Positions 3,145 to 62,601 of a stretch of DNA of 64,000 bases are shown one piece after another. Every line of letters starts with the position of its first letter. Positions within the stretch are counted from its first letter, which is position 1. The translations under genes and the position numbers were made by a program. Origin of the DNA: Candidatus Woesearchaeota archaeon (GTDB lineage: Archaea; Nanobdellota; Nanobdellia; Pacearchaeales; GW2011-AR1); assembly GCA_964509675.1 (NCBI GenBank), contig CAZDXC010000001.1, positions 115,973-179,972 of the forward strand, written 5' to 3'. The notes under the pieces were generated by a model, which searched no databases, was not told the DNA's origin, and saw nothing but the letters and a program-made list of their open reading frames with translations.

Positions 3145-4277
3145 TACAAACTCAGCAATTTTACCTTTGTGTCTGTTGTTGCAAAATTCTTAGCAACTAT
3201 TACTCTGCATCCAATTTCTTCAGCAGAATTTATTATAGAATTTGTCGCTTTTCCGTCAATTACTATTGCTGTTGGTTTATTTCTTAATCTTTTTAATGCA
3301 TTTGCTAAGCTTTTTACTGAGACTCTTTTAATTTCATCCAATGAACTGTCAAGCAGTACTGCTTTTCCGCTCCCCTCATTTTCACCAGAAATTTTCTTCA
3401 TCTTTTTTCTGTCATCAGCATTTAACTCTAATTCTTTTTCTTCTTTTTTATAATTTCTTGGATTTGAAGAAAAAAACTCCTTTAAGGGGAGTTTTTTTCT
3501 CAGGCTCATTAAAATTTCTTTGCCGGTGAGTTCTTCCACTTCCTTTCCGTCTGGTGCAACAGCAACATATTTCACATTTGCATTATCAGCAACATTCTTG
3601 ACAATCAATTTCCCTCCTCTGTCGCCGTCAACAAATAAAATTATGTCTTTTTCTTTGCTCAATTCCTTGATTTCTTCAGGGAGTTTTGTTCCGTTCATTG
3701 CAATGACATTGTTGATTCCGTTTCTCATCAAATTCAAAACATCTGCTCTTCCTTCAACCACAATTATCTCTTTTCCTGTCAGGTCTCCTGCAGAAAGTTT
3801 GCTTTCTCCATATTCTTTGATATTCGCAGTCCTTGCAGAATCTTTGATTTCTGTAGAAATCTCTCTTGAATCTGTCTTGCCGTGAATGTCATGCATGAGT
3901 CTCTTTGCTCTTTCAACAATATAATCTCTCTTGCTTCCTCTCACATCTTCTATTTTTTCTACTTCAATCTGAGAATCACAAGGTCCGATTCTTTCTATTG
4001 TTTCAATAGCAGCAGCAATAAGACTAGTCTCACTCTGGTCAAGGGCAGTCGGAATTTTTATGGTTCCCACTGTATTCTTTCCTTCTTTGTGCAAATCAAC
4101 TTCAATTCTTCCTATTTTTCCTTCTTTTTGCAATTCTCTCATCTCTAATTCAGCTCCCAAAAGTCCTTCTGTCTGCCCGAATATAGCTCCGATTACATCA
4201 GGCTTTTCAAGAGCTCCTTCAACTGAAAAATTTGCATGTATCATATATTTGATTGATACTGGACTTATTTTTGCCAT
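3144..4277 (-). CDS. dnaG: archaeal DnaG primase (TOPRIM)
   Basis: The N-terminus ISPVSIKYMIHANFSVEGALEKPDVIGAIFGQTEGLLG is the characteristic archaeal DnaG start. A TOPRIM region follows (IIVVEGRADVLNL ... ILFVDGDRGG). Confidence 0.85.
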   Translation of the reverse strand: MAKISPVSIKYMIHANFSVEGALEKPDVIGAIFGQTEGLLGAELEMRELQKEGKIGRIEVDLHKEGKNTVGTIKIPTALDQSETSLIAAAIETIERIGPCDSQIEVEKIEDVRGSKRDYIVERAKRLMHDIHGKTDSREISTEIKDSARTANIKEYGESKLSAGDLTGKEIIVVEGRADVLNLMRNGINNVIAMNGTKLPEEIKELSKEKDIILFVDGDRGGKLIVKNVADNANVKYVAVAPDGKEVEELTGKEILMSLRKKLPLKEFFSSNPRNYKKEEKELELNADDRKKMKKISGENEGSGKAVLLDSSLDEIKRVSVKSLANALKRLRNKPTAIVIDGKATNSIINSAEEIGCRVIVAKNFATTDTKVKLLSL

Positions 4278-13055: not shown

Positions 13056-13478
13056 TTAACGCCTGCCTTTCTCTATCTTGCCTTTCACTAACAAATGCAG
13101 GGGCTGGTCATTTACTTGGACTACTTTGAATCTCACGCCCGGAATATCTCCCTTACTTCTTCCTTGTTTTCCTCCGATTCTTTCAATCATAACTTCATCA
13201 TGTTCATCAATGAATTTTTGTGCGAGATTTCCTGGAATGAATGCTAGCACTGTTTTACCGTTTTTTTTGAGCTGAACTTTGCAACATTTTCTCATTGCTG
13301 AATTTGGCTGTTTTGCTTCTTTCTGAACTTTTTGCAGGACAATTCCTTTTGCTTGGTTTGCTCCCTCAAGAGGATCTGCTTTTGCATAAAGATTAAGAGT
13401 TTTCACTTTGAATTTCCTGTCTTTCCACTGGAATTTTTTCCTGTTTTTCATTAATTTTTTCGCGTTTTTTAATCCCAT
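13056..13478 (-). CDS. rps12: ribosomal protein uS12
   Basis: [13 protein letters not shown] and the [13 protein letters not shown] region are universal S12 hallmarks. Confidence 0.95.
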
Positions 13479-13512
13479 TTTTCAATGTCTAGCGATGCGT
13501 ATGCGTAATCCC
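13479..13512 (-). promoter_or_regulatory. conserved GC-rich leader element (copy A) immediately 5' of the rps12 start codon
   Basis: Plus-strand TTTTTCAATGTCTAGCGATGCGTATGCGTAATCC contains the shared core ATGCGTATGCGTAAT. It abuts the ATG on the coding strand as ...CATTGAAAAATG. Confidence 0.5.
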
Positions 13513-13577
13513 TTTTTAGTCCCATGATTATTCATAAAGAAATTAGTTTTTAAATGTTTTCAGAAGAATCAGAGGAA

Positions 13578-14047: not shown

Positions 14048-17000
14048 TTATTTATTCGTGTCTTCAACGATTTTTTTCTTTGCTATTTTCTTTTCTTCTT
14101 CTTTTTTTATTAATGGACCTACAACTTTAACCATCAAACCTGGAAGCCCGGTTCCAACAGGAACAGGCTGATTCAGCATTATGTTTTCTATGACACTGAC
14201 AAGTCTGTCTTTGCTTCCTTTTATTGTTGCATTGATAAATTGTTTTCCGGGAGTTTCAAATGTTGCCCTTGCCAAGATTGAAGATTTTTGTGCTATAATT
14301 CCCATTCTTGTAACTCCTTTTATTTCTCCTGTATTTGTCATGGCATCTGAAATGAGTTTTAGATGTCTCTCATTAATGTCCAATCCCTGCGTGTTTATTA
14401 CATTATAAATTTCATCCATTATTAATTGTCTTGCAACTTCTATTCCAAATGTGTCAGCAACTTCATACAAGTCATTTGAAATAACTCTGTCAGAATCAAC
14501 TTCTTTTAATTCGATTATTTTTTTCAAATTTGTTCCGAGAGTCATTATTATGTAATCTCTGTCTTTCTTAACTATAAGAATCTGCTTAATTCCCTTAATA
14601 CCAGAGATTATTGTTTTTTTTAGTTTTTCTTTAAGCTGATAAATTTCTTTAAAACTGAACTCAGAAGCGTTTAGAGTTATTGAATCTGATTTTTCCCTTG
14701 CTTTAAAGCCCAAATCATTCAGCCTCTCAACAACAGTCTTTATTGAACTGTGAGTTTGCCTTAATCCTGTTTTGTCAATTACTATTTCAATTGTCTTGTT
14801 GCTAAAATTGAGATTTATCTCAGAGGCAATTTCTCTTAATGTTACCTCTTTGATTTTCTCGGCAAAAACTTTGGCATTTTTTTCATTGTTGTATTCTTTT
14901 TTCAGGAAGATTTCCATTTTCGGAGAAGAAGGTTTTTTCCTTGCATCAAAAATTTCTATTAATCTTGGAAGTCCCATTGTAATCTGCATTTCCTGAACTC
15001 CTGCAAAATGGAATACATTCAATGCCATCTGAGTTGAAGGCTCTCCAAAAGACTGCGCTGTGACAATCCCTATCGCTTCTCCCGGATTAATTTGTTTTTT
15101 GAGATGCAGCTTTGAAACATCCATTCCATCATCCCCATATTTAAATTGTATCAGATTATTGTTGCTGTCTCTGACAGTTCCATCGTATTCTATTCTCAAA
15201 TCCTGCAAGGCATTTGCCAGTCTTCTGTACAAGTATCCTGACTTCGGCGTTCTTAATGCAGTATCCATGAGAGAATCTCTTCCTGTAATAGCTCCGAAAA
15301 AGAATTCATCTGGCCTTAATCCTTTTATAAAAGAACTTTTTATAAATCCCCTTGCAGCAGGAGTAAGGTCCCCCTGCCTGAAAAATGATAATGTTCTCCC
15401 ATTATATCCAATGTCAATTCTTTTTCCCCATAAAGCCTGTTGCCCCACACATGAAGCCATTTGAGTAATATTCAGAATATTTCCTCCTCCTCCGGATTTA
15501 ATCATGTGATTCACAGGATTTTCTTTGGGAAATTCTCTCTTGACAATTTCTCCTATCTTTGTTCTTACTTCATTCAGTGCCTGAAGTATCTTTATCTCTC
15601 TTGACTCTTCTTCTGTCTTTCCCGGAATTCTCTCAAGCTCGCCTTTATTGTAGCTTTCTATAATTTCTTCTGTTTTCTTCTCGGCTTTCTTTATTATTTC
15701 TTCTCCTGCATCAATCACGCTTTGATTCAAATCCAAATCTTCAACAGAAATTGTTATTCCCCTGTCTGACAGATATTTGACACCCAAATTAAACACTTTT
15801 CTTATTGTTTCAAATGTTTCATTTGTTCCGACTTTCTCATCAAGGACTTTTATAAATCCCCCGTCTTCGCTTCCGAATAATGTTTTGTCTATTTCTCCTT
15901 TAGTGACTTCTCCATTTCTTATGCTGACAGAATCATTAGAGAAATTTATTTTTGGAAGTATTAATGAAAACATTTCTTTTCCTGTTATGTTCTTTTTTGA
16001 TATTTCCTGATTAATGCCTGATTTGAAAAGGATTTGATTTGCATAATCATTTGAGAATTCCTCTTCTCCAAGAAGATAATTTCCTGTTATTGCGTCTCCT
16101 ATACATCCGATTAAATTTGTGTTATTCTTCGGAGAAATTAAATTTTTCTTTACATCCAAGAGAATTTTTGCTTCTGCCCTTGCTTCTTCTGTCTGCGGAG
16201 AATGTATGTTCATTTCATCCCCGTCAAAATCTGCATTATATGGAGTAACCACAGAAGGATGTAACCTGAAAGTTCTTCCTGGAAGCACCTTAACAAAATG
16301 GGCCATCAGGCTTCCTCTGTGCAAACTTGGATGCCTGTTGAATAAAACAACATCTCCGTCCTGAAGATGTCTCTCAACTTTATACCCCGAATCAAGTTCA
16401 TTGATTATTTCTTCTTTCAAGTCAGGAGTTATTTTTTTTCTCTTTCCGTCAGGTCTTATAATATAATTTGCTCCTGGATATTCTTCTCCCCTCTCAATTA
16501 ATTCTTTCAGTTTTTCAATATTCAAGTCAGTGACACTTTCTGCAACAGTAACTACCTTTGCAATTTCATAAGGAATTCCTACTTCATTGATTGATATGTA
16601 TGGGTCTGGAGAAATTACTGTTCTTCCCGAATAATTTACTCTTTTTCCAGCAAGATTTTTTCTTATTCTTCCTTCTTTTCCCTTTATTCTTTCCATAATT
16701 GTTTTTAATGGTTGTCCTGAACGGTGTCTTGCAGGAGGTATTTTTGCTACGCTATTGTCAAAAAATGTTGTGACATGAAATTGTAATAAATCCCACAAAT
16801 CTTCTATTATTACTTCAGGAGCTCCTGCATTCAGATTTTCCCAAAGTCTTTGGTTTGCTCTTATAATATCAGAAAGCTTATGAGTAAGGTCATCTTCGCT
16901 TCTCTCTCCTGATTCCAAGATAATGCTTGGTCTTACTGTTACGGGAGGGACAAGAAGCATAGTCAAAACAGCCCATTCTGGTCTGCATGTGGTTGGATTT

Positions 17001-17542
17001 ACACCAATTTTTTTCAATTCTTCGTTTGGAATATTAACGAGCATTTCTCTTATTTCAGTAGGAAAAAGTCTTGTCTTTCCAATGAAAAAACTTGTCGGCT
17101 TATCAAGTTTAATTCTTTCATGCACAGCACCACAATGCGGACATTTCTTTGAATCCTTTGCCTTTTTTGCTCTCTCGCTTGGAGTATATTTTTCCAAATC
17201 TTTGTCAGCAATCAAGAGTTTTCCACACTCTCTGCAAAAACATCTTAATGCCAGTTCAATTAAAGAGACATATTTCAAATGTATTATGGGTCTTGCCAAA
17301 TCAATGCTTCCAGGATGTCCCAAACATTCTTTCAGTCTTCCTCCGCATGTTCTGCATCTCACTCCCGGGTCTATCGCACCAAGACGTAAATCCATCAGTC
17401 CTCCGTCAACAGGATATCCATCTATATTATAAAGTTCAGGCGTGACTATCTTTGCAGCAGAGATTTTCTTGATGTCTTCTGGACTAAACAAGGCAAATCT
17501 TATTTCTTCTACTTTCTTCTTTATTGGTTTTTGTTCTATCAT
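14048..17542 (-). CDS. rpoA: DNA-directed RNA polymerase subunit A, a fused A'+A'' single ORF
   Basis: The N-terminal zinc clamp is CRTCGGRLKECLGHPG and the active site is YNADFDGDEMN. The bridge-helix region is GLRPDEFFFGAITGRDSLMDTALRTPKSGYLYRR and the A''-type trigger loop is GEAIGIVTAQSFGEPSTQMALNVFHFAG. All of these lie in one uninterrupted 1164-aa frame. Confidence 0.95.
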   Translation of the reverse strand: MIEQKPIKKKVEEIRFALFSPEDIKKISAAKIVTPELYNIDGYPVDGGLMDLRLGAIDPGVRCRTCGGRLKECLGHPGSIDLARPIIHLKYVSLIELALRCFCRECGKLLIADKDLEKYTPSERAKKAKDSKKCPHCGAVHERIKLDKPTSFFIGKTRLFPTEIREMLVNIPNEELKKIGVNPTTCRPEWAVLTMLLVPPVTVRPSIILESGERSEDDLTHKLSDIIRANQRLWENLNAGAPEVIIEDLWDLLQFHVTTFFDNSVAKIPPARHRSGQPLKTIMERIKGKEGRIRKNLAGKRVNYSGRTVISPDPYISINEVGIPYEIAKVVTVAESVTDLNIEKLKELIERGEEYPGANYIIRPDGKRKKITPDLKEEIINELDSGYKVERHLQDGDVVLFNRHPSLHRGSLMAHFVKVLPGRTFRLHPSVVTPYNADFDGDEMNIHSPQTEEARAEAKILLDVKKNLISPKNNTNLIGCIGDAITGNYLLGEEEFSNDYANQILFKSGINQEISKKNITGKEMFSLILPKINFSNDSVSIRNGEVTKGEIDKTLFGSEDGGFIKVLDEKVGTNETFETIRKVFNLGVKYLSDRGITISVEDLDLNQSVIDAGEEIIKKAEKKTEEIIESYNKGELERIPGKTEEESREIKILQALNEVRTKIGEIVKREFPKENPVNHMIKSGGGGNILNITQMASCVGQQALWGKRIDIGYNGRTLSFFRQGDLTPAARGFIKSSFIKGLRPDEFFFGAITGRDSLMDTALRTPKSGYLYRRLANALQDLRIEYDGTVRDSNNNLIQFKYGDDGMDVSKLHLKKQINPGEAIGIVTAQSFGEPSTQMALNVFHFAGVQEMQITMGLPRLIEIFDARKKPSSPKMEIFLKKEYNNEKNAKVFAEKIKEVTLREIASEINLNFSNKTIEIVIDKTGLRQTHSSIKTVVERLNDLGFKAREKSDSITLNASEFSFKEIYQLKEKLKKTIISGIKGIKQILIVKKDRDYIIMTLGTNLKKIIELKEVDSDRVISNDLYEVADTFGIEVARQLIMDEIYNVINTQGLDINERHLKLISDAMTNTGEIKGVTRMGIIAQKSSILARATFETPGKQFINATIKGSKDRLVSVIENIMLNQPVPVGTGLPGLMVKVVGPLIKKEEEKKIAKKKIVEDTNK

Positions 17543-17555
17543 TTTTATTTTTTAT

Positions 17556-17676
17556 TTCAGTGTTTCGCGAAGTTTTGTTTTGTCTCGCAATGCGTATGCG
17601 TAATGTGTTGTTTTGTCTCGCAATGCGTATGCGTAATGTGTTGTTTTGTCTCGCAATGCGTATGCGTAATCGCTAT
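17556..17676. repeat. three tandem 35-bp direct repeats (TTGTTTTGTCTCGCAATGCGTATGCGTAATGTG) filling the rpoB-rpoA spacer
   Basis: Copies lie at about 17573-17608, 17609-17643 and 17644-17676. The last copy ends in AATCGC and overlaps the rpoB stop codon. The TTTCAGTG leader module sits at 17556. Confidence 0.8.
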
Positions 17677-20600
17677 TCGTATTTGTTTTTCAGTCCGAAT
17701 GTTGTGTGGATGTGCAATCCCTGAAGCTCTTCAAGCAGAAGCTTGAATGCATAAGACATTTCTACTGGCTCTATGTCTTCGCTCCCGCACATAGGACAGA
17801 TTAATTTATTCCTTGCGTTATCATCAATTCCAATGCTTCCGCATTTCATACATATTGGAAGAACAACTTTGTCTGAATCATATCTTTCTTTCAGCAATAA
17901 AGAAGAGCCATGGGCAACTAATGCTTCCTGTTCCATTTCTCCTAATCTTAATGCTCCTCCTCTTGCCCTTCCTTCTATCGGCTGTCTTGTTAATAATGCG
18001 ACTTTTCCAGAAGCTCTTCCATGCATCTTGTTTCCTACCATGTATTTCAGTTTCAGGTAATACAAATTTCCGACAAATATTTTTGCAGACATCCTCTTTC
18101 CTGTTATCCCGTTATACATTGTTTCTTTCCCGTCATACCTAAAACCAAGATTCCTCAATTGCTCTTCCAACTGCTTTTTTCCTATTCCTGAAAAGCTTGT
18201 CCCGTCCATAATTTCTCCGTTAAGGCTCCCTACTTTTCCTGCAATTAATTCTAACAAGTATCCAACAGTCATTCTGCTCGGCAATCCATGAGGATTAAAA
18301 ATTACATCAGGCCTTACTCCCCTTGAAGTGAAAGGTATATCTTCTTCAGGAACAATCATTCCAATAACTCCTTTTTGTCCATGAGATGTTGCAAACTTGT
18401 CTCCAAGTTCAGGAACTCTTTGGTCACGAGTTCTTACCTGAACTATCTTGTTTCCTTCTGAATCTTCTGTTATAAAAACACCATCTACAATTCCTTTTTC
18501 TTCCTGTCTCATCGTAATGCTTGACTCTTTTTTTGTTTTAATGGAAATTTCTCTTGCTTCTGACAAGAATTTTGGGGGAGACATTTTCCCAATCATAACT
18601 TCTCCCTCATCTACTTCTGCTTCAGGATAAATGATTCCATCACTTTCCAAATGTTTGTAACTTGCTTCTGTTCTGTATCCAGAAGCGTCTTTTTCGGGAA
18701 TAGCAATCTCATCTTTTAGCCCTCCTGCATAATTCATTTCTATTGCACTATAAGGACGGAAATAGAAACTTCTTCCAACACCCCTGTCCAAACTTCCCTT
18801 ATTAAATACAAGGGCATCTTCCATGTTATATCCCTCATAAGTCATGATTGCTACAACCAAATTTTGTCCTGCAGGATATGTATTAAGAGTATCATAAACA
18901 AAGCTTCTCACAATCGGTTTTTGGGGATATTGTAAAATACTTACATCAGTATCTAATCTACAAAGATAATTTGCAGAATAAAGTCCAAGTGCCTGTTTTT
19001 GTGTTTTGCTTCCTCTGTTGAGTCTTGAACTTTGGTCATGATTTCCATATGGAACCAAACTTGTAACAACTCCAAGCAAATCCATATTATCAATTTCAAG
19101 ATGGGTGCTCTCTGAAGTTAGTTCCTCCTCGTACAAGGCAACTAATGTGTTTTCTTCTTCGGCAGCATCTATATACTCTATTATTCCTTTATTCAACAAA
19201 TCATTCCATTTTAATTCACCCTGCTCAATTTGTATCTTGTGCTCATTTTTTAATCTCGAGATTCCGTTTTCTGAAATTATCAAAGGACGCAATACCCTTC
19301 CTGATTCTGTGGAAATTAAAACTGTCTTAAATCCTACATCACTTCTAACACTCATTTGTATGGGGAAATTTCCTTCACGTCTTTTTTCTCTTATTTTTTT
19401 TACAAATTCCTCTGGTTCTTTTGCATTTCCTATAAATCTTCCGTTAAAGAACACTTCTGCTCCTTCAAATCCTTCCCTTTCCATTCCAAGAGATTTCAAA
19501 TCCTTGAAAAATTTCTCATTATCAAGTTCTACTCTTGTTGAAATTTTGCTTAATATTGCAAGGTTTTTTCTTAAACCAATTTCAGTTCCTTCTGGCGTCT
19601 CTATCGGACAGAACCTTCCATAATGAGTCGGATGAAGAGTTCTTGCCAGAAAGTTTTCCTGATCAGAAGGAAGCATGCTTGAAACTCTCTGTAATTGAGA
19701 AATCATTGCAAGATAATTTGTCTTATCCATGTTTTGGGTTACCCCGCTTCTTTCTCCTGTCCAGCTTCCTGTTGCGATTGCAGATTCAACCCTGTGGGAA
19801 AATAAAGTTGATTTTGCTATAACACGGATAGAAAAGAATTTTTTTCTTTTTGATGATTTTTGAATTGAATACTGAATATCTCTTATCAAAATTCCGAGAT
19901 TAACTCTGAAAAGATTTGCCAATAAATCGCCTGAAAGCCTGACTCTTTTATTTGAATAATGATCTTTGTCTGTTCTTAGTTCAGGATTTTCTTTTGCAAT
20001 TAAAAATTGTTTTATGAGTTTGCAGATTGTTATTGCCTTGTTTATCCTGTCCTCTTTTTTTTGTCCTATATGGGGAAGCAAATAAGAATCCATTCTTTGC
20101 TTTATTCTGTCAAGAATTTCTTTTTTTGTCCCTTGGAGCCCTGTTTTTTCAGCAATAAACATCATGGCATCTTCTTTTGTTGCAATATCAACAAATTCAT
20201 ACAAATTAACAATAACAGAATCGGTTTCTTTTCCAATATATTTTGCAATATCAGATTCTTTTATTAATCCAAGAGATTTCAAAATGACTATTGCAGGCAA
20301 ATCTTTGAATCTGCTGAATGACAGTTCAATAATTCCTTCCTTGCTTTCCGAAATTGTGATAGGAATTCTGTATGTTCCTTTTAATGAAAATAATCTAAGG
20401 TTTAAGTTTCCCTTGCTGTTCACTTCAATGAATGGCTGGTTTTCAGCAAGGTCTTCTGCCATGACCATTACTCTTTCATTTCCATTTATTATGAAATATC
20501 CTCCTGGGTCTAGAGGGTCAGAATAATTTTCAATCAATTCTTCATCGCTCATTCCATGGGTGTTGCATGCCTTGCTCTTTACCATTATCGGAATTTTCCC

Positions 20601-20927
20601 GACTTCAACAGTCTCAGAATCAACTATGTCTCCTTTTTTCACTGTTATCTCAAGGGTTACAGGAGCAGAGTAAGTAAGATTTCTCAATCTTGCTTCATAA
20701 GGCATTATCAGGGAAGAACTTCCGTCGGCTTCAACGACTTTTGGTTTTTCAATTTTTACTTTCCCCAAGCTGATTTCAAATTCTTCATTATTCATACTTT
20801 CAGAAATTTCATTGACAATCTCCTGCATTCTGTGCTCTAAGAATTCATTGAAGGAAGTAATGTTAGATTCCACTAAAGAATGTTCTTCAAGATATTTTTT
20901 TATTACAAGATGATTGTCTTTTTTCAT
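17673..20927 (-). CDS. rpoB: DNA-directed RNA polymerase subunit B (unsplit B'+B'')
   Basis: A single 1084-aa ORF with Rpb2-family N-terminal, hybrid-binding and C-terminal Zn (CPMCGS) regions. Confidence 0.95.
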   Translation of the reverse strand: MKKDNHLVIKKYLEEHSLVESNITSFNEFLEHRMQEIVNEISESMNNEEFEISLGKVKIEKPKVVEADGSSSLIMPYEARLRNLTYSAPVTLEITVKKGDIVDSETVEVGKIPIMVKSKACNTHGMSDEELIENYSDPLDPGGYFIINGNERVMVMAEDLAENQPFIEVNSKGNLNLRLFSLKGTYRIPITISESKEGIIELSFSRFKDLPAIVILKSLGLIKESDIAKYIGKETDSVIVNLYEFVDIATKEDAMMFIAEKTGLQGTKKEILDRIKQRMDSYLLPHIGQKKEDRINKAITICKLIKQFLIAKENPELRTDKDHYSNKRVRLSGDLLANLFRVNLGILIRDIQYSIQKSSKRKKFFSIRVIAKSTLFSHRVESAIATGSWTGERSGVTQNMDKTNYLAMISQLQRVSSMLPSDQENFLARTLHPTHYGRFCPIETPEGTEIGLRKNLAILSKISTRVELDNEKFFKDLKSLGMEREGFEGAEVFFNGRFIGNAKEPEEFVKKIREKRREGNFPIQMSVRSDVGFKTVLISTESGRVLRPLIISENGISRLKNEHKIQIEQGELKWNDLLNKGIIEYIDAAEEENTLVALYEEELTSESTHLEIDNMDLLGVVTSLVPYGNHDQSSRLNRGSKTQKQALGLYSANYLCRLDTDVSILQYPQKPIVRSFVYDTLNTYPAGQNLVVAIMTYEGYNMEDALVFNKGSLDRGVGRSFYFRPYSAIEMNYAGGLKDEIAIPEKDASGYRTEASYKHLESDGIIYPEAEVDEGEVMIGKMSPPKFLSEAREISIKTKKESSITMRQEEKGIVDGVFITEDSEGNKIVQVRTRDQRVPELGDKFATSHGQKGVIGMIVPEEDIPFTSRGVRPDVIFNPHGLPSRMTVGYLLELIAGKVGSLNGEIMDGTSFSGIGKKQLEEQLRNLGFRYDGKETMYNGITGKRMSAKIFVGNLYYLKLKYMVGNKMHGRASGKVALLTRQPIEGRARGGALRLGEMEQEALVAHGSSLLLKERYDSDKVVLPICMKCGSIGIDDNARNKLICPMCGSEDIEPVEMSYAFKLLLEELQGLHIHTTFGLKNKYE

Positions 20928-21121
20928 TATACCACCACTCTGAAATAAACTCCTGATTTTCTTTCAATTTTGATTATGTCTCCGACATCGCAGTCTTCTG
21001 GCAAAGCCACATCTGTGGAAAGAATTTTTGGCAATTGTGCCTTAGAAATATTTAATCTATTTAATAATTCTTCAACTTCTTTTTCATTGAGTTTTGTGTG
21101 TTTGGGTTGGAGAACGTGCAT
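20927..21121 (-). CDS. rpoH: DNA-directed RNA polymerase subunit H (Rpb5 homolog)
   Basis: A 64-aa ORF starting HVLQPKHTKLNEKEVEELL and ending DIIKIER.S...YFRVVV, which is the Rpb5 C-domain pattern. It sits immediately upstream of rpoB and its stop/start is shared with rpoB at 20927. Confidence 0.8.
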   Translation of the reverse strand: MHVLQPKHTKLNEKEVEELLNRLNISKAQLPKILSTDVALPEDCDVGDIIKIERKSGVYFRVVV

Positions 21122-21460: not shown

Positions 21461-21596
21461 TGGCCCCGATGGGATTTGAACCCACGACACCTGGATCTCT
21501 TTGCCTATTGTAGTTTCTTTGAGCGCCGAATCTTTCTTTTCTAAAGAAAGTTGGGCATAAAAGTCCAGTGCTCTAACCAGACTGAGCTACGGAGCC
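21461..21596 (-). tRNA. tRNA-Lys(UUU) with a 61-nt intron at the canonical 37/38 position
   Basis: The 5' exon is GGCTCCGTAGCTCAGTCTGGTTAGAGCACTGGACTTTTA and the 3' exon is ATCCAGGTGTCGTGGGTTCAAATCCCATCGGGGCCA. The acceptor has seven pairs (one G-U), the D-stem is GCTC/GAGC, the anticodon stem is CTGGA/TCCAG, and the T-arm is GTGGG-TTCAAAT-CCCAT. CCA is not encoded. Confidence 0.75.
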
Positions 21597-21648: not shown

Positions 21649-21661
21649 AGAGCTACGGAGC
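21649..21661 (-). repeat. 13-nt direct duplication of the tRNA-Lys 5' end (GGCTCCGTAGCTC), 66 nt upstream of the tRNA
   Basis: An identical 13-mer lies upstream of the tRNA gene, followed by TTTAAGGGTAGG, a plausible TATA-like box about 39 nt from the tRNA 5' end. Confidence 0.5.
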
Positions 21662-21708
21662 CTTAATTCACTAAGTAAATTTGTATTTAAAAAATCTTTG
21701 TATAAGAA

Positions 21709-22035
21709 TTAAACAAACTTTTTCAGCCTGTTTTCAAGTTCGTCTCCAGACATAGCTCCCACAAATTGTTCAATAGGTTTTCCGTCTTTTAGCAAAACAA
21801 AATTAGGAATTGAACTGATATTGAACTTTCTTGCAAGCAACTGATTATCTTCTACATTAACTTTGCCGAATTTTATTTTTTTTCCTAATTTCTCACTTAA
21901 TTCATCAATTACAGGAGCCATCATCAGGCAGGGCATGCACCATTCTGCAAAAAAATCTATGAAAACCATTCCCTTTTTAATGAATTCTTCAAATTCTTTG
22001 TCTGTCAATTCAGGAACATTATCATTATTTGTCAT
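21709..22035 (-). CDS. trxA: thioredoxin (non-canonical CMPC active site)
   Basis: FFAEWCMPCLMMAPV sits in a 108-aa thioredoxin-fold protein. Confidence 0.85.
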   Translation of the reverse strand: MTNNDNVPELTDKEFEEFIKKGMVFIDFFAEWCMPCLMMAPVIDELSEKLGKKIKFGKVNVEDNQLLARKFNISSIPNFVLLKDGKPIEQFVGAMSGDELENRLKKFV

Positions 22036-22068
22036 TTTCAGTGCCTCGCGATGCGTATGCGTAATCGC
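22036..22068 (-). promoter_or_regulatory. conserved GC-rich leader element (copy D) abutting the trx start codon
   Basis: Plus-strand TTTCAGTGCCTCGCGATGCGTATGCGTAATCGC carries the GCGAT/ATCGC inverted flanks around the core. Confidence 0.5.
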
Positions 22069-22162
22069 TTTGTCATTCTAGATTATCATAAAAATGATTT
22101 ATAAAAGTTTTGTTACAATATAAAATAAGAAGATTTAAATAATATCTATTTGGTTTTTCCCC

Positions 22163-39184: not shown

Positions 39185-39204
39185 TATGCAAAATCTCCTT
39201 TCCT

Positions 39205-39238
39205 TTTTCAGTGTTTTGCGATGCGTATGCGTAATCGC
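39205..39238 (-). promoter_or_regulatory. conserved GC-rich leader element (copy E), 20 nt upstream of the iscS start
   Basis: Plus-strand TTTTCAGTGTTTTGCGATGCGTATGCGTAATCGC. A GGAGAT Shine-Dalgarno-like sequence lies between the element and the ATG. Confidence 0.5.
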
Positions 39239-46564: not shown

Positions 46565-48736
46565 TCATCTCTGCCGCATTGATAGTTTTTCATTCCCTTT
46601 CTTTTTCTTGAATAGTCTTCTCAAACCAAGATAGAGGGTTATTAATATTCCAACACTAACAACAGCAATTATACTCGTATAAAAAATAGTTGAAATTGAA
46701 AAAATGCCCATACATTCTCCTTCTTTGCACCCATAACCACATTTTTTTGTTATCAGCCATGTTGAATTTCCGACACACATTTGTATTTGGTCATTAAAGC
46801 ATCTTTTGCTCCCGATTTCACATTCATATTTCCCGAAGAAAACAAGGAATGTTGAAAACCCAGGAGACAATGCACTAAAATAATAATATTGATTATCTTC
46901 ACTTGTATAAGTTGTTGAAAGAATATTCCATTGGCTTTCTAAATCCTGCTTTCTGTAGAGTGCAATATCTCCTACTGTTCCGTTTTGTTCTGCAAGCCAA
47001 GCCTTATTTACCTTAAAGTCAATTGTTGCATTATCAATTTTTTCCTCATTTATTCCTCTTGTGTTTATTTCAAATATTTGGTAAGAAGTTCCAACAGGGA
47101 ACCCCAATTTTAAATCTTTTGGTAAAATATTTATTTTTGAGATTGTTAATGAAGCATTTTGAATTAATTCTGTTACACTAACAGTTATCTTTGTTAAGTC
47201 TATCTCCTTACTGTCTATTATAATTTCTGTCGGCTGATTTGGAGAGATTGAAGACAGAGACTGACTTGTTATTGGCACATTTTGTATTATTTCCCCGCCA
47301 GGCGCATTAACAGTATAAGTTGCTGTTGCAGAGCCAGTATTTCCTACAATATCTGCAAAAGTGCATGTTGTTGTAAATGTTCCTACTTGCGATGTTGAGG
47401 GATTTGGTGTATATAGTGTTAAACTGCTATTAATCCCTGAAAAAACATCACTCGGAGTACAAGAACATGTAATGGTTCCCCCAACAGTAACAGAAGCAGG
47501 AGAACAGGTAAATACTGCTGTCGGGTTTATAGTGTCTACTGAGAATTTGGCTAAATAAATATTTTCATCTTTAGTTCCAGTAACATAAATGTCTCCCAAA
47601 GAAGACTCAATTGCAATCCCATAACCAAGATCTGCCACTATAGCTGAACCTTTGATAGTTGCGTTCCATAAATTGCTTCCTGATGAATTGAATTTTCCTA
47701 TATAGATATCATCATATAAATCAGAACTCCAACGAGAAAATCCTGTAATATAAATGTTAGAACTATTATCCAATGCAATTCCATAGCTGAAATCATTATC
47801 ATTTTGGGGGCCATTAAGAGTGGCATTCCATAAATTGCTTCCTGATGAATTAAATTTTCCCAAATAAATATCTGTAGTTGAAGCATTACTCCAGTAAGAA
47901 TATCCAACAATATAGATAGAATTATTATCTACTGCAATTCCATAACCTAAATCATTCTTATTTTTAGGGCCATCTATAGTTGCGTTCCATAAATTGCTCC
48001 CAGAAGAATTGAACTTTCCCAAATAAATATCTGTAGTTGAAGCATTACTCCAACGAGAAAATCCGGTAATATAAATAGAATTATTGCTTATTGCAATTCC
48101 ATGTCCTTCATCATCTTTTCTTTGAGGACCATCTATAGTTGCATTCCACAAATTGCTTCCAGAAGAGTTGAACTTTCCTACATAGATATCTCCGCTTGTG
48201 GCATTGCTCCAAAGAGATTTCCCAATTACATAAATAGAACCATTACTTACTGCAATCCCATAGCCAAAATCACTTTTATTTTGAAAACCATCTATTGTAG
48301 CATTCCAAATATTTGCTCCGTTTGTTGAGTTGAATTTTCCAATATAAATGTCATAATAAGTAGCAGAGTTCCAAAGAGAAGAGCCTACAACATAGATATT
48401 TGATTCATTATCAACTGCTATTCCATAACCAACGTCGTCATTATTTTGGGGGCCATTAAGAGTGGCATTCCATAAATTGCTTCCTGATGAATTGAATTTT
48501 CCTACATAGATATCTCCGCTTGTAGCGTTACTCCAATAAGATTGCCCCACAACATAGACATTTGAATTATTATCTATTGCAACCCCATAACCATAATCAT
48601 AACTATTTTGGGGTCCATCCATTGTAACATTCCACAAAACAGTTGCAGGATTTTCTGCAATAACAAAAAGATATAAAAATATGGCAATTACAAAAAACAA
48701 AGAAAAAAATATTATCAACCTCTTCTTTTTAATCAT
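46565..48736 (-). CDS. large cell-surface protein with about eight tandem repeats of about 48 aa and a C-terminal TM anchor
   Basis: Repeat unit S(G/N)(D/T)IYxGKFNSSGSNLWNATxxGPQN...GYGIAxDN. A Cys-rich module (CEIGSKRCFNDQIQMCVGNSTW..CGYGCKEGEC) is followed by a TM helix and an RRLFKKKK tail. Confidence 0.6.
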   Translation of the reverse strand: MIKKKRLIIFFSLFFVIAIFLYLFVIAENPATVLWNVTMDGPQNSYDYGYGVAIDNNSNVYVVGQSYWSNATSGDIYVGKFNSSGSNLWNATLNGPQNNDDVGYGIAVDNESNIYVVGSSLWNSATYYDIYIGKFNSTNGANIWNATIDGFQNKSDFGYGIAVSNGSIYVIGKSLWSNATSGDIYVGKFNSSGSNLWNATIDGPQRKDDEGHGIAISNNSIYITGFSRWSNASTTDIYLGKFNSSGSNLWNATIDGPKNKNDLGYGIAVDNNSIYIVGYSYWSNASTTDIYLGKFNSSGSNLWNATLNGPQNDNDFSYGIALDNSSNIYITGFSRWSSDLYDDIYIGKFNSSGSNLWNATIKGSAIVADLGYGIAIESSLGDIYVTGTKDENIYLAKFSVDTINPTAVFTCSPASVTVGGTITCSCTPSDVFSGINSSLTLYTPNPSTSQVGTFTTTCTFADIVGNTGSATATYTVNAPGGEIIQNVPITSQSLSSISPNQPTEIIIDSKEIDLTKITVSVTELIQNASLTISKINILPKDLKLGFPVGTSYQIFEINTRGINEEKIDNATIDFKVNKAWLAEQNGTVGDIALYRKQDLESQWNILSTTYTSEDNQYYYFSALSPGFSTFLVFFGKYECEIGSKRCFNDQIQMCVGNSTWLITKKCGYGCKEGECMGIFSISTIFYTSIIAVVSVGILITLYLGLRRLFKKKKGNEKLSMRQR

Positions 48737-61365: not shown

Positions 61366-62601
61366 ATGAAACAATCAGCCATAAGTCAAATCCAAAGGAA
61401 GATTAAGCGAAGGAAACCATTGGTGTCCTCGCAATATGAACTCCTTGCTCCCGCAGGAGATTTTTCTATGCTGAATGCAGCAATAAATGCAGGAGCAGAT
61501 GCAGTGTATTTTGGATTAAAAGAGTTTAGCATGAGAGCAAATGCAAAGAATTTCACAATAAAAGATTTGGACAAAATTGAAAAAATATGCAAGAAAAAGA
61601 AAATAAAAAGATATCTCACACTAAACACAATAATCTACAATTCAGAATTAAAGCAGATAGAAAAGGTAATCAAAAAAGTCAAAGGAAAAATAGACGCAAT
61701 TATCTGCTGGGACTTAGCAGTTGTTGAATTTTGTAGAAAATACAAAATACCTTTTTTCATTTCCACACAGGCAAGTGTTGCAAACATTGAAGCTGCAAAA
61801 TTCTATAAAAAACTTGGAGCAAAAAGAATTATTTTGGCAAGAGAATTAAATCTAAAGCAGATAAAAGAAATCTCAAAGATAATTGATGTAGAATGTTTTA
61901 TTCATGGCGCGCTATGTGTTGCAGTTTCAGGAAGATGCTTTACAAGCCAGTTTCTTTTTAACAAATCTGCCAACAGAGGAGAATGCCTGCATCCTTGCAG
62001 AAGAAGTTATATTGTAAAAGATGAAGAAGGAAATGAATTGAAAATAGAAAACTCAAAAATTCTCTCTGCAAAAGACCTCTGTGCTTTGCCATTCATAGAA
62101 AAAATGAAACAGGCAGGAATAAAAGCATTCAAGATAGAAGGAAGAAACAGGGATGCGAGATATGTGGATGCTGTTGTAAGAGTTTACAGAAAAGCCCTCG
62201 ACAAAAAACTAACAAAAAAAGAAATAGATTCAGGAATAAAAGAATCAGAAAGAATTTACAATAAAGGATATTCTTCTGGCTTCTATCTGAAACTTCCAAC
62301 TGCTGATGATTTTGCAAAGATAGAACACAATGCATCAAGAGAAAAAAAGCATTTCATAGGAAAAGTCATGCATTATTTTTCAAATATAAAAATTGCAGCA
62401 GTAAAACTCGTCCATGAATTAGAACTTGAAGATGAAATTGTGATAATAGGCAAGACAACAGGCATTGTAAAAGGAAAAATCAGTTCTATTGAAATAAACA
62501 ATAAACCAGTAAAAAAAGCAAGAAAAGGGGATGAAATTGGAATACCTGTATCTGAAATAGTTAGAAAAAATGATGAAGTCTACTTAATTAAGAAAAATTA
62601 G
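61366..62601 (+). CDS. peptidase U32 family protein
   Basis: YELLAPAGDF at the N-terminus and ECFIHGALCVAVSGRCFTSQ are U32 signatures. Confidence 0.85.
   Translation: MKQSAISQIQRKIKRRKPLVSSQYELLAPAGDFSMLNAAINAGADAVYFGLKEFSMRANAKNFTIKDLDKIEKICKKKKIKRYLTLNTIIYNSELKQIEKVIKKVKGKIDAIICWDLAVVEFCRKYKIPFFISTQASVANIEAAKFYKKLGAKRIILARELNLKQIKEISKIIDVECFIHGALCVAVSGRCFTSQFLFNKSANRGECLHPCRRSYIVKDEEGNELKIENSKILSAKDLCALPFIEKMKQAGIKAFKIEGRNRDARYVDAVVRVYRKALDKKLTKKEIDSGIKESERIYNKGYSSGFYLKLPTADDFAKIEHNASREKKHFIGKVMHYFSNIKIAAVKLVHELELEDEIVIIGKTTGIVKGKISSIEINNKPVKKARKGDEIGIPVSEIVRKNDEVYLIKKN

Follow-up and report, generated by a model that had tools for sequence, protein, structure and literature searches.

Short repeats dispersed through bacterial genomes include the REP/BIME sequences, MITEs of the Correia/NEMIS type and the Rickettsia palindromic elements. 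These are short, multi-copy sequences that are co-transcribed, lie after stop codons or in operon spacers, and are often found in clusters. Bacterial short dispersed repeats form hairpins in which sequence changes preserve the stem, and the Rickettsia palindromic elements also occur in frame within coding sequences and in RNA genes. In archaea, transposition has been proposed for the bulge-helix-bulge (BHB) introns of tRNA genes in the Thermoproteales, the reported cases being transfers from one tRNA gene to another only (Fujishima et al., 2010, summarised in PMC4090602). Disruption of tRNA genes by integrating mobile elements leaves scars (Sugahara et al., 2012, PMC3293823).

The sequence considered here is a tandem array in the spacer between rpoB and rpoA of a Candidatus Woesearchaeota archaeon, on the minus strand of a 64,000-nt stretch of contig CAZDXC010000001.1 (the window). 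On balance, we favor the view that it is a recently amplified array of a mobile element related to the intron of tRNA-Arg, and that it is co-transcribed and serves as neither promoter nor attenuator. The neighbors of the array, and the other copies of the element in the window, are collected in Table 1. Beyond rpoA, the minus strand carries a gene for a NusA-like KH protein, followed by rps12 (13478..13056) and rps7. Subunit A of RNA polymerase is split in most archaea; a single fused A'+A'' rpoA gene is found here and in all relatives retrieved. Many genes of the clade share a strikingly conserved translation-start context, GGAG(N)TTTTGCATAATG (for example at 39185-39205 on the minus strand, and in L022, L059, and L065), and a Shine-Dalgarno sequence is entirely missing from other genes of the clade. 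An imperfect 159-nt tandem repeat at 47600-48640, with about six copies and 72% matches, is probably a repeat-domain protein encoded on the minus strand.

Table 1. Coordinates of the array, of the other element copies in the window, and of neighboring genes.
Feature	Position	Strand	Basis or remark
Single copy 5' of the cysteine desulfurase (iscS-like) start	39211..39238	-	31 nt from the start, ahead of a GGAG ribosome-binding site
9-nt duplication at trx, AATGACAAA	22077-22069 and 22036-22028	-	Start codon included
Single copy, thioredoxin leader	22037..22068	-	Covariance model; flanked by the 9-nt direct duplication
Thioredoxin gene (trx)	22035..21709	-	
Intron-containing tRNA gene, tRNA-Lys(UUU)	21596..21461	-	Intron ~61 nt
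rpoH	21121..20927	-	
rpoB, 1084 aa, upstream neighbor of the array	17673..20927, stop TAG 17675..17673	-	Pfam Rpb2 domains 1-7
Unit 1, rpoB-proximal, GCGATTACGCATACGCATTGCGAGACAAAACAACA	17641..17673	-	Covariance-model hit 17646-17673, 45.1 bits
Unit 2, CACATTACGCATACGCATTGCGAGACAAAACAACA	17608..17640	-	Covariance-model hit 17613-17640, 32.7 bits
Unit 3, rpoA-proximal, CACATTACGCATACGCATTGCGAGACAAAACAA	17575..17607	-	Covariance-model hit 17580-17607, 32.7 bits
Tail, AAC-TTCGCGAAACACTGAAA	17555..17574	-	Direct reading; equals the 3' "outer half" of the composite copies of the family
A-rich stretch, TAAAAAATAAAA, directly 5' of the rpoA ATG	17543..17554	-	Direct reading
rpoA, fused A'+A'', 1164 aa, downstream neighbor of the array	14048..17542	-	Pfam Rpb1 domains 1-5, one ORF
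13-nt duplication of the rps12 gene start	ATGGGAcTAAAAA at 13525-13513, ATGGGATTAAAAA at 13478-13466	-	
Single copy, rps12 leader	13479..13512	-	Covariance model; flanked by the 13-nt duplication of the gene start

The initial annotation described three perfect 35-bp repeats filling a 130-nt spacer. The length of the spacer, from the rpoB stop codon to the rpoA start, is as described, and the repeats are indeed perfect and tandem, but the period is 33 nt and not 35: Tandem Repeats Finder places the array at 17575-17670 with 2.9 copies of a 33-nt period, 100% matches and a score of 192, and the unit quoted in that annotation is itself 33 nt long. A search with the unit finds three adjacent copies at the array, with no match in 100 shuffles. 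The sense-strand sequence of the spacer is TA[G CGATTACGCATACGCATTGCGAGACAAAACAACA][CATTACGCATACGCATTGCGAGACAAAACAACA][CATTACGCATACGCATTGCGAGACAAAACAA]AACTTCGCGAAACACTGAAATAAAAAATAAAAATG. Parsed as ATTACGCATACGCATTGCGAGACAAAACAA[C/A]AC, it comprises three full 33-nt units, with one mismatch in the last, and then TTCGCGAAACACTGAAA. The rpoB-proximal unit starts with GCGATT and the other two with CACATT. An overlap of the end copy with the rpoB stop codon had also been reported and amounts to 1 nt, the first G of unit 1 (by the family consensus, in the covariance-model hit) being the G of the TAG. The units abut with no spacers between them, and the array was rightly called not CRISPR-like; unique spacers of similar length between repeats, as in a CRISPR, are lacking. 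The family has a common composite, or nested, form of copy, (GC)CATTACGCATA / GCGATTACGCATACGCATTGCGAGACAAAACAACAC / TTCGCGAAACACTGAAA, and the array and its tail correspond to the inner and 3' parts of this composite in triplicated form. The same tail recurs in the composite copies of L063, L085, L100, L119, L121, and L128.

The unit is one member of a dispersed family whose core, GCGAUUACGCAUACGCAUYGCGA (ATTACGCATACGCATYGC in the window), precedes a variable A-rich tail, for which RRCACUGAAA and RRCAAAACAAC are frequent. A link between the array and a "leader motif" had been proposed from the sequence and holds up well: the core is found also at 13485-13512, 22041-22068, and 39211-39238, all on the minus strand, and a covariance model run without filters returns exactly six copies in the window and nothing else below E = 1. 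The exact 18-mer is present at 46 loci when one genome is taken per species, with 32 of the 46 in 16 MAGs labelled Pacearchaeota, Woesearchaeota or Nanoarchaeota (up to eight per MAG); the remaining 14, bacterial singletons in unrelated taxa, are attributed to chance. A partly degenerate 23-mer recovers at least 120 metagenome stretches, and a scan of viral contigs for the element gave no matches. At the Rfam gathering threshold only tRNAs match in the window, with nothing in 17400-17800 at E <= 10, and a literature search for the element sequence found no description of it. The element is a short dispersed family of about 23-35 nt in a clade of Pacearchaeota/Woesearchaeota-type DPANN archaea, apparently undescribed so far.

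Outside tRNA genes, copies are located in 5' leaders, just after stop codons, in frame within coding regions, nested in the loop of another copy, and in head-to-tail arrays, with at least 11 distinct arrays having periods of 33, 39-42, or 46-54 nt. The genes downstream are unrelated, including rpl5, rpl1, sufC, gyrB, the small subunit of DNA polymerase II, membrane proteins, trx, iscS, rps12, and rpoA. Among the matches listed, the genes flanking 115 unique copies lie on the same strand in 117 cases versus 20 on the opposite strand, 28 of the 115 copies fall within ORFs (26 on the same strand, two on the opposite), and overall orientation is ~87% sense.

Within tRNA genes, the element constitutes the whole 35-36-nt anticodon-loop intron of tRNA-Arg(UCU) in seven of the matches listed (L010, L029, L072, L095, L141, L165, and L170), as recognized with the Rfam tRNA model and ARAGORN. 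The boundaries of these copies read ACUGC/CUUC/UA^G-CG ... CG/GAAG/AU^A/GCAGU, an arrangement in which the exon CUUC pairs with the intron GAAG and UA^G and AU^A form the 3-nt bulges. Folding the L010 pre-tRNA to minimum free energy gives the anticodon stem, the CUUC/GAAG central helix, a 2-bp helix, and the 3-bp helix 8-10/20-22. These copies are predicted to be canonical BHB introns. A BHB in the spacer or the leaders, both drawn by hand and folded, was rejected, with no complementary exon segment to be found. The upstream complement to the GAAA/UGAA segment is absent by direct reading at the rpoB-rpoA, trx, and rps12 copies, and the fold of the spacer lacks the BHB helices. Because the motif is absent at their boundaries, the copies in mRNAs are not classed as introns.

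Other tRNA introns carry related sequence. In L070 (34-146) and L156 (2985-3097), the intron of tRNA-Lys(UUU) starts with ACGCATTGTGAAATCG, a sequence equal to the 3' half of the A9/U21-type variant of the element and an indication that other introns contain partial copies of it. A second short element family, GCGAGGACACC(A/T)A(T/C)GGTTTCCTTCGCTTAATCTTCC(C/T)TT, occurs once in the window at 61394-61433 on the minus strand. This family makes up the rpoB-rpoA spacer of L049 (13258-13295) and is found in L018 at 3750-3800, and modules similar to it lie inside tRNA introns, including those of L085 and L034. Dispersed elements may be linked to tRNA introns generally in these genomes. The tRNA-Lys(UUU) gene of the window has its own first 13 nt, GGCTCCGTAGCTC, duplicated upstream at 21662..21650, with a 53-nt spacer between. 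The same order of a tRNA 5' fragment, an insert of 60-140 nt, and a full tRNA gene is seen at tRNA-Lys, tRNA-Ile, and tRNA-Glu in relatives (L007 3565-3840, L034 1-860, L094/L112), where the inserts often hold one or two copies of the element.

Seven syntenic 23-kb regions were retrieved from relatives with RpoB identity of 87-92%. The covariance model finds six copies in the window versus zero or one in each of these regions; by this comparison, copies were probably gained recently in the window lineage. The rps12 site is empty in L048, L049, and L050, where ATGGGATTAAA comes immediately after the TATA box; in the window this place is taken by ATGGGAcTAAAAA, a 34-nt element, and ATGGGATTAAAAA. 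The trx site is empty in L049 and L050, with ATGACAAAT present once, and in the window a 32-nt element stands between two copies of AATGACAAA. The trx insertion is common to L048 and L172, there with a 65-nt insert in the loop of the element. Insertion with target duplication accounts for at least two of the window copies, at rps12 and trx. L003, L044, L059, and L110 have clean, abutting duplications of 9-11 nt, and clean target duplications vary overall from 8 to 13 nt; duplication length is not fixed, and no terminal inverted repeats were found on the element. Among the matches listed, target duplications are detectable at 10 of 131 copies, compared with 13 of 393 in a control with shifted boundaries, and are proven for some copies, not all. 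Longer duplications of tRNA gene 5' ends, of 16 and 38 nt, flank the element-bearing inserts in L034 and L007. A rule by which target duplications always start at the 5' end of a transcript was considered and rejected; it fits the trx, rps12, and tRNA cases and fails at L003, where the insertion lies inside an operon. Copy number differs at one locus between L079 and L089 (two copies versus one). Insertions within coding sequences add nucleotides in multiples of three (in L003 and L044, for instance, 28 + 11 = 39 nt), and out-of-frame insertions persist where the duplicated segment restores a start codon, a pattern that would be expected from selection on unspliced insertions.

The rpoB-rpoA junction itself varies considerably. 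When unmodified, the two genes are tightly adjacent, as the initial annotation had expected, with a 1-nt gap in L174. The same annotation treated the array as a feature of a conserved operon and proposed comparing the junction among related genomes; in that comparison the array is absent from the seven relatives with 87-92% RpoB identity, and it is not a conserved operon feature. Unrelated small ORFs, each abutting the rpoA start, occupy the junction in several genomes. These encode 61 aa, Cys-rich (L048/L172, 13257-13442), 80 aa (L050, 13248-13490), 90 aa (L171, 13257-13529), and 117 aa (L173, 13257-13610), the last of them with a signal-peptide-like N-terminus. In L049 the junction holds a different hairpin element, GCGAGGACACCTACGGTTTCCTTCGCTTAATCTTCCCTT, resembling modules of other tRNA introns. 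For small insertions in this clade, the junction appears to act as a hot spot. In L070, whose RpoB is 74.9% identical, the TAG is followed by three tandem copies with a 40-nt period and then by the rpoA start, reflecting either a preferred target site or an array that is favored there. The end of rpoB, TACGAATA/GCGA, resembles the nesting site TACGCATA/GCGA inside the element.

The regulatory reading of the array is for the most part not borne out. An internal promoter had been suggested; direct reading shows no TATA/BRE-like sequence suitably spaced from the rpoA ATG, with CGCGAAA at -27, and a promoter scan of the spacer, using a tool that covers the bacterial sigma-70 type only, gave no matches. 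The suggested attenuation point fares similarly, with no U-tract (no run of T) on the sense strand of the spacer and no sites in a terminator scan. Nor are the envisaged hairpins strong, each unit having a 4-bp stem only (-4.2 kcal/mol) and the spacer not standing above shuffles (z = -1.6). The only moderately stable hairpin of the spacer, in the minimum-free-energy fold, is a 7-bp stem of TTGCGAG in unit 3 (17590-17584) with TTCGCGA (17571-17565), just upstream of the A-rich leader. The A-rich stretch before rpoA is without a Shine-Dalgarno-like sequence on direct reading, and the sense strand of the spacer contains no ATG before the rpoA start. The array is probably a co-transcribed passenger with little regulatory consequence and should not be read as a conserved regulatory device of the rpoB-rpoA operon. 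Clear TATA boxes stand upstream of the element at trx and rps12, with a good one ~30 nt further upstream in the case of the trx-leader copy, and the element is therefore transcribed there. These two insertions (22028-22077 and 13466-13525) add a short upstream ORF to apparently leaderless mRNAs, MTKRLRIRIARH and a stop codon for trx and 18 codons for rps12. Both upstream ORFs terminate at, or immediately ahead of, the genuine start codon, a placement suggestive of reinitiation at the trx and rps12 starts.

As an RNA, the core contains a helix of 3-4 bp, C8 G9 C10 (A11) / (U19) G20 C21 G22, with compensatory changes. In a set of 87 distinct 28-mers among the matches listed, 21 cells of helix 8-11/19-22 are changed on both sides, compared with 2.3 +/- 1.4 in shuffles and with none of 500 shuffles reaching 21, counts to be read with the proviso that the search patterns fixed most positions and that subfamilies inflate the number of cells. 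At least four compensatory types in the helix are independent. Pair 8-22 is CG in 70, GC in 9, and UG in 2; pair 9-21 is GC in 72, CG in 8, and AU in 4; and a common C19-to-U variant, present in the window units, adds an A11-U19 pair. Judged from these substitutions, the helix appears to be maintained by compensatory changes. At orthologous sites the 23-nt core is identical at 21-23 of 23 positions and the flanks at only 72-80%, and the cores of L058 and L068 differ solely by G9A plus C21T. A core conserved between diverged flanks is better explained by selection on the RNA or by gene conversion than as neutral junk.

Several more specific assignments of the core were tried and rejected. The hairpin GCGAU/AUCGC (positions 1-5 with 17-21), into which the isolated canonical unit folds at minimum free energy, shows no covariation, and changes at position 21 disrupt it. 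A box C/D sRNA or K-turn has no UGAUGA, and the CUGA of the tail is missing from many copies, including the tRNA-Arg intron (CGGA). Complements that would make a riboswitch-like pseudoknot, an anti-Shine-Dalgarno sequence, or a pairing with tRNA exons are absent by eye, and the downstream genes are incoherent. A leader peptide was considered as all three sense frames are open (AITHTHR, RLRIRIA, DYAYASR), and was rejected because the frame varies between loci and copies in tRNA introns cannot code. A motif of the uptake-signal or replication-oriented kind is ruled out by the sense orientation and the RNA-type covariation.

Less likely than the mobile element, but a serious alternative, is that the element is a cis-acting RNA module in which the hairpin and its conserved flanks are bound by a trans factor with a second role on pre-tRNA-Arg. 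Candidates would be a processing enzyme, a ligase, a chaperone, or a regulator of translation, setting the processing, stability, or translation of the mRNA, and the three copies of the array would amount to a strong site for processing or binding, through which the rpoA-distal part of the operon would be expressed separately. The covarying helix, the core kept while its flanks diverge, with a compensatory change at an orthologous site in a coding sequence, and the mostly sense orientation (~87%) are consistent with such a module, as are the frequent position of the element immediately 5' of start codons or ribosome-binding sites and the independent three-copy arrays at rpoB-rpoA in genomes with 75% RpoB identity. 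Against this, the downstream genes have no common theme, seven close relatives lack the element at rpoA and rps12, and some copies lie in frame within coding sequences and others inside copies. A stem of 3-4 bp at -4.2 kcal/mol is a weak structure, direct reading of the mRNA copies yields no BHB, and no Rfam family matches.

A recently amplified mobile element is the reading we prefer. The dispersed family would be mobile and related to the excised tRNA-Arg intron, from which it may derive; the opposite direction, from dispersed copies to intron, is possible. The element would have entered the rpoB-rpoA junction at the stop codon, its first G making the TAG stop, and local amplification to three identical copies would then have occurred through unequal recombination or slippage, or through repeated insertion next to itself. 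Simple slippage from the present flanks was rejected, as it does not account for the CAC trinucleotide that links the units. The array would ride in the rpoH-rpoB-rpoA mRNA as three weak hairpins plus one 7-bp hairpin. With the intercistronic gap taken from ~1 nt to 130 nt, tight translational coupling was probably replaced by initiation on the A-rich leader. Counting against a mobile element, no transposase, reverse transcriptase, or other mobility function was identified, and the three-copy array of L070 at the same junction could reflect selection for the array.

A retroposon-like route, to which we assign a low probability, would start from the tRNA-Arg(UCU) intron after its excision: the RNA, in linear or circular form, would be converted back to DNA, which would insert at transcribed A-rich sites. 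Such copying would leave target duplications and a constant 5' end at the 5' splice site of the intron. Arrays would result from copying around a circular intron or from repeat insertion beside resident copies, and the second intron-like family (the L049 spacer and window positions 61394-61433) would behave similarly. If true, this would be the first retroposon-like behavior of archaeal BHB introns, together with a concrete mechanism for intron gain.

An assembly artefact, in which the true locus has one or two or many more copies and the repeat was mis-resolved, is quite unlikely. The copies are perfectly identical, as a mis-resolved repeat might be. In the independent Logan assembly of SRR14802574, with an identical rpoB, the contig stops exactly where unit 1 ends, and L070 and several other contigs end in or beside arrays. 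A stop at unit 1 is the behavior expected of a short-k assembler at a repeat. The break corresponds to two different continuations after unit 1, a branch in the assembly graph, and there are therefore at least two copies, the exact number not being given by the break. The 99-nt array is short enough for single 150-nt reads to span, and arrays of two or three copies occur in many independent assemblies. The unit-to-unit junction of the window array had no matches in the metagenome scan, and no further assembly of this locus contains the array. Least credible of all is a DNA-level site, an internal promoter or transcription-factor array that starts or represses rpoA-nusA-rps12 transcription: three identical direct repeats would suit it, as would a motif that at trx and rps12 lies just 3' of the TATA boxes, a typical position for archaeal repressor sites, but neither the array nor the sequence after it has a TATA/BRE properly spaced from the rpoA ATG, compensatory changes speak for single-strand pairing and not double-stranded recognition, the element also lies inside tRNA genes as an intron and in frame in coding sequences, and its orientation tracks transcription with no coherent regulon.

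The family offers a tractable case for the spread of archaeal BHB introns, with a ~30-nt sequence that is also a bona fide tRNA intron and with fresh insertions versus empty sites, nested copies, arrays, and a testable structure constraint. For annotation, the elements create apparent small and upstream ORFs and extend proteins in frame. They also break short-read assemblies and, in very small genomes, change how essential operons are spaced. The conserved, structured core may serve the cell or the element alone.

Of the described systems, the introns of the Thermoproteales are alike in being canonical BHB introns with near-identical intron sequence at different places in the genome; as far as the summary describes them they are unlike the present family, in which most copies lie outside tRNA genes and without a BHB, some with target duplications, and in which head-to-tail arrays occur (PMC4090602). 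The scars of tRNA gene integration share the order of a tRNA 5' fragment, an insert, and a full tRNA gene, seen here at tRNA-Lys (window 21662-21461) and others, but the inserts here are 53-140 nt long, have no recombinase gene, and are filled with element copies in relatives (PMC3293823). Minisatellites or VNTRs resemble the array in its perfect head-to-tail copies, and the family in a copy number that differs between related populations at another locus (L079 vs L089); unlike theirs, the unit here is not locus-specific and belongs to a lineage-wide family with conserved sequence and structure. SINE-like retroposons are similar as small, structured, tRNA-linked RNAs with an A-rich 3' end and A-rich targets, duplications of variable length, and many near-identical young copies, the latter consistent with a master copy. 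They differ in that the present family is ~30 nt long, is without a linked reverse transcriptase, and has a constant 5' end and a variable 3' end, the opposite of 5' truncation; we know of no retroposition of the SINE-like kind in archaea.

With respect to the bacterial short repeats, the present family is much shorter, has no terminal inverted repeats and only a very small stem, is mostly sense-oriented (~87%), leaves variable duplications, doubles as a tRNA intron, and is archaeal, and no partner of the RAYT or transposase kind was identified for it. REP-like sequences are intergenic only and in both orientations, and the family departs from them through its copies in ORFs (28/115), its sense bias (~87%), and its copies in tRNA genes, while sharing with them a hairpin with compensatory substitutions, here on a stem of 3-4 bp. 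Presence or absence of the element together with target duplication, as for a transposable element or MITE, is seen at rps12 (13 nt) and trx (9 nt). The family resembles the bacterial repeats further in being multi-copy and co-transcribed, in its sites at stop codons and in spacers, in its clustering and covarying hairpin, and in its copies in frame and in RNA genes.
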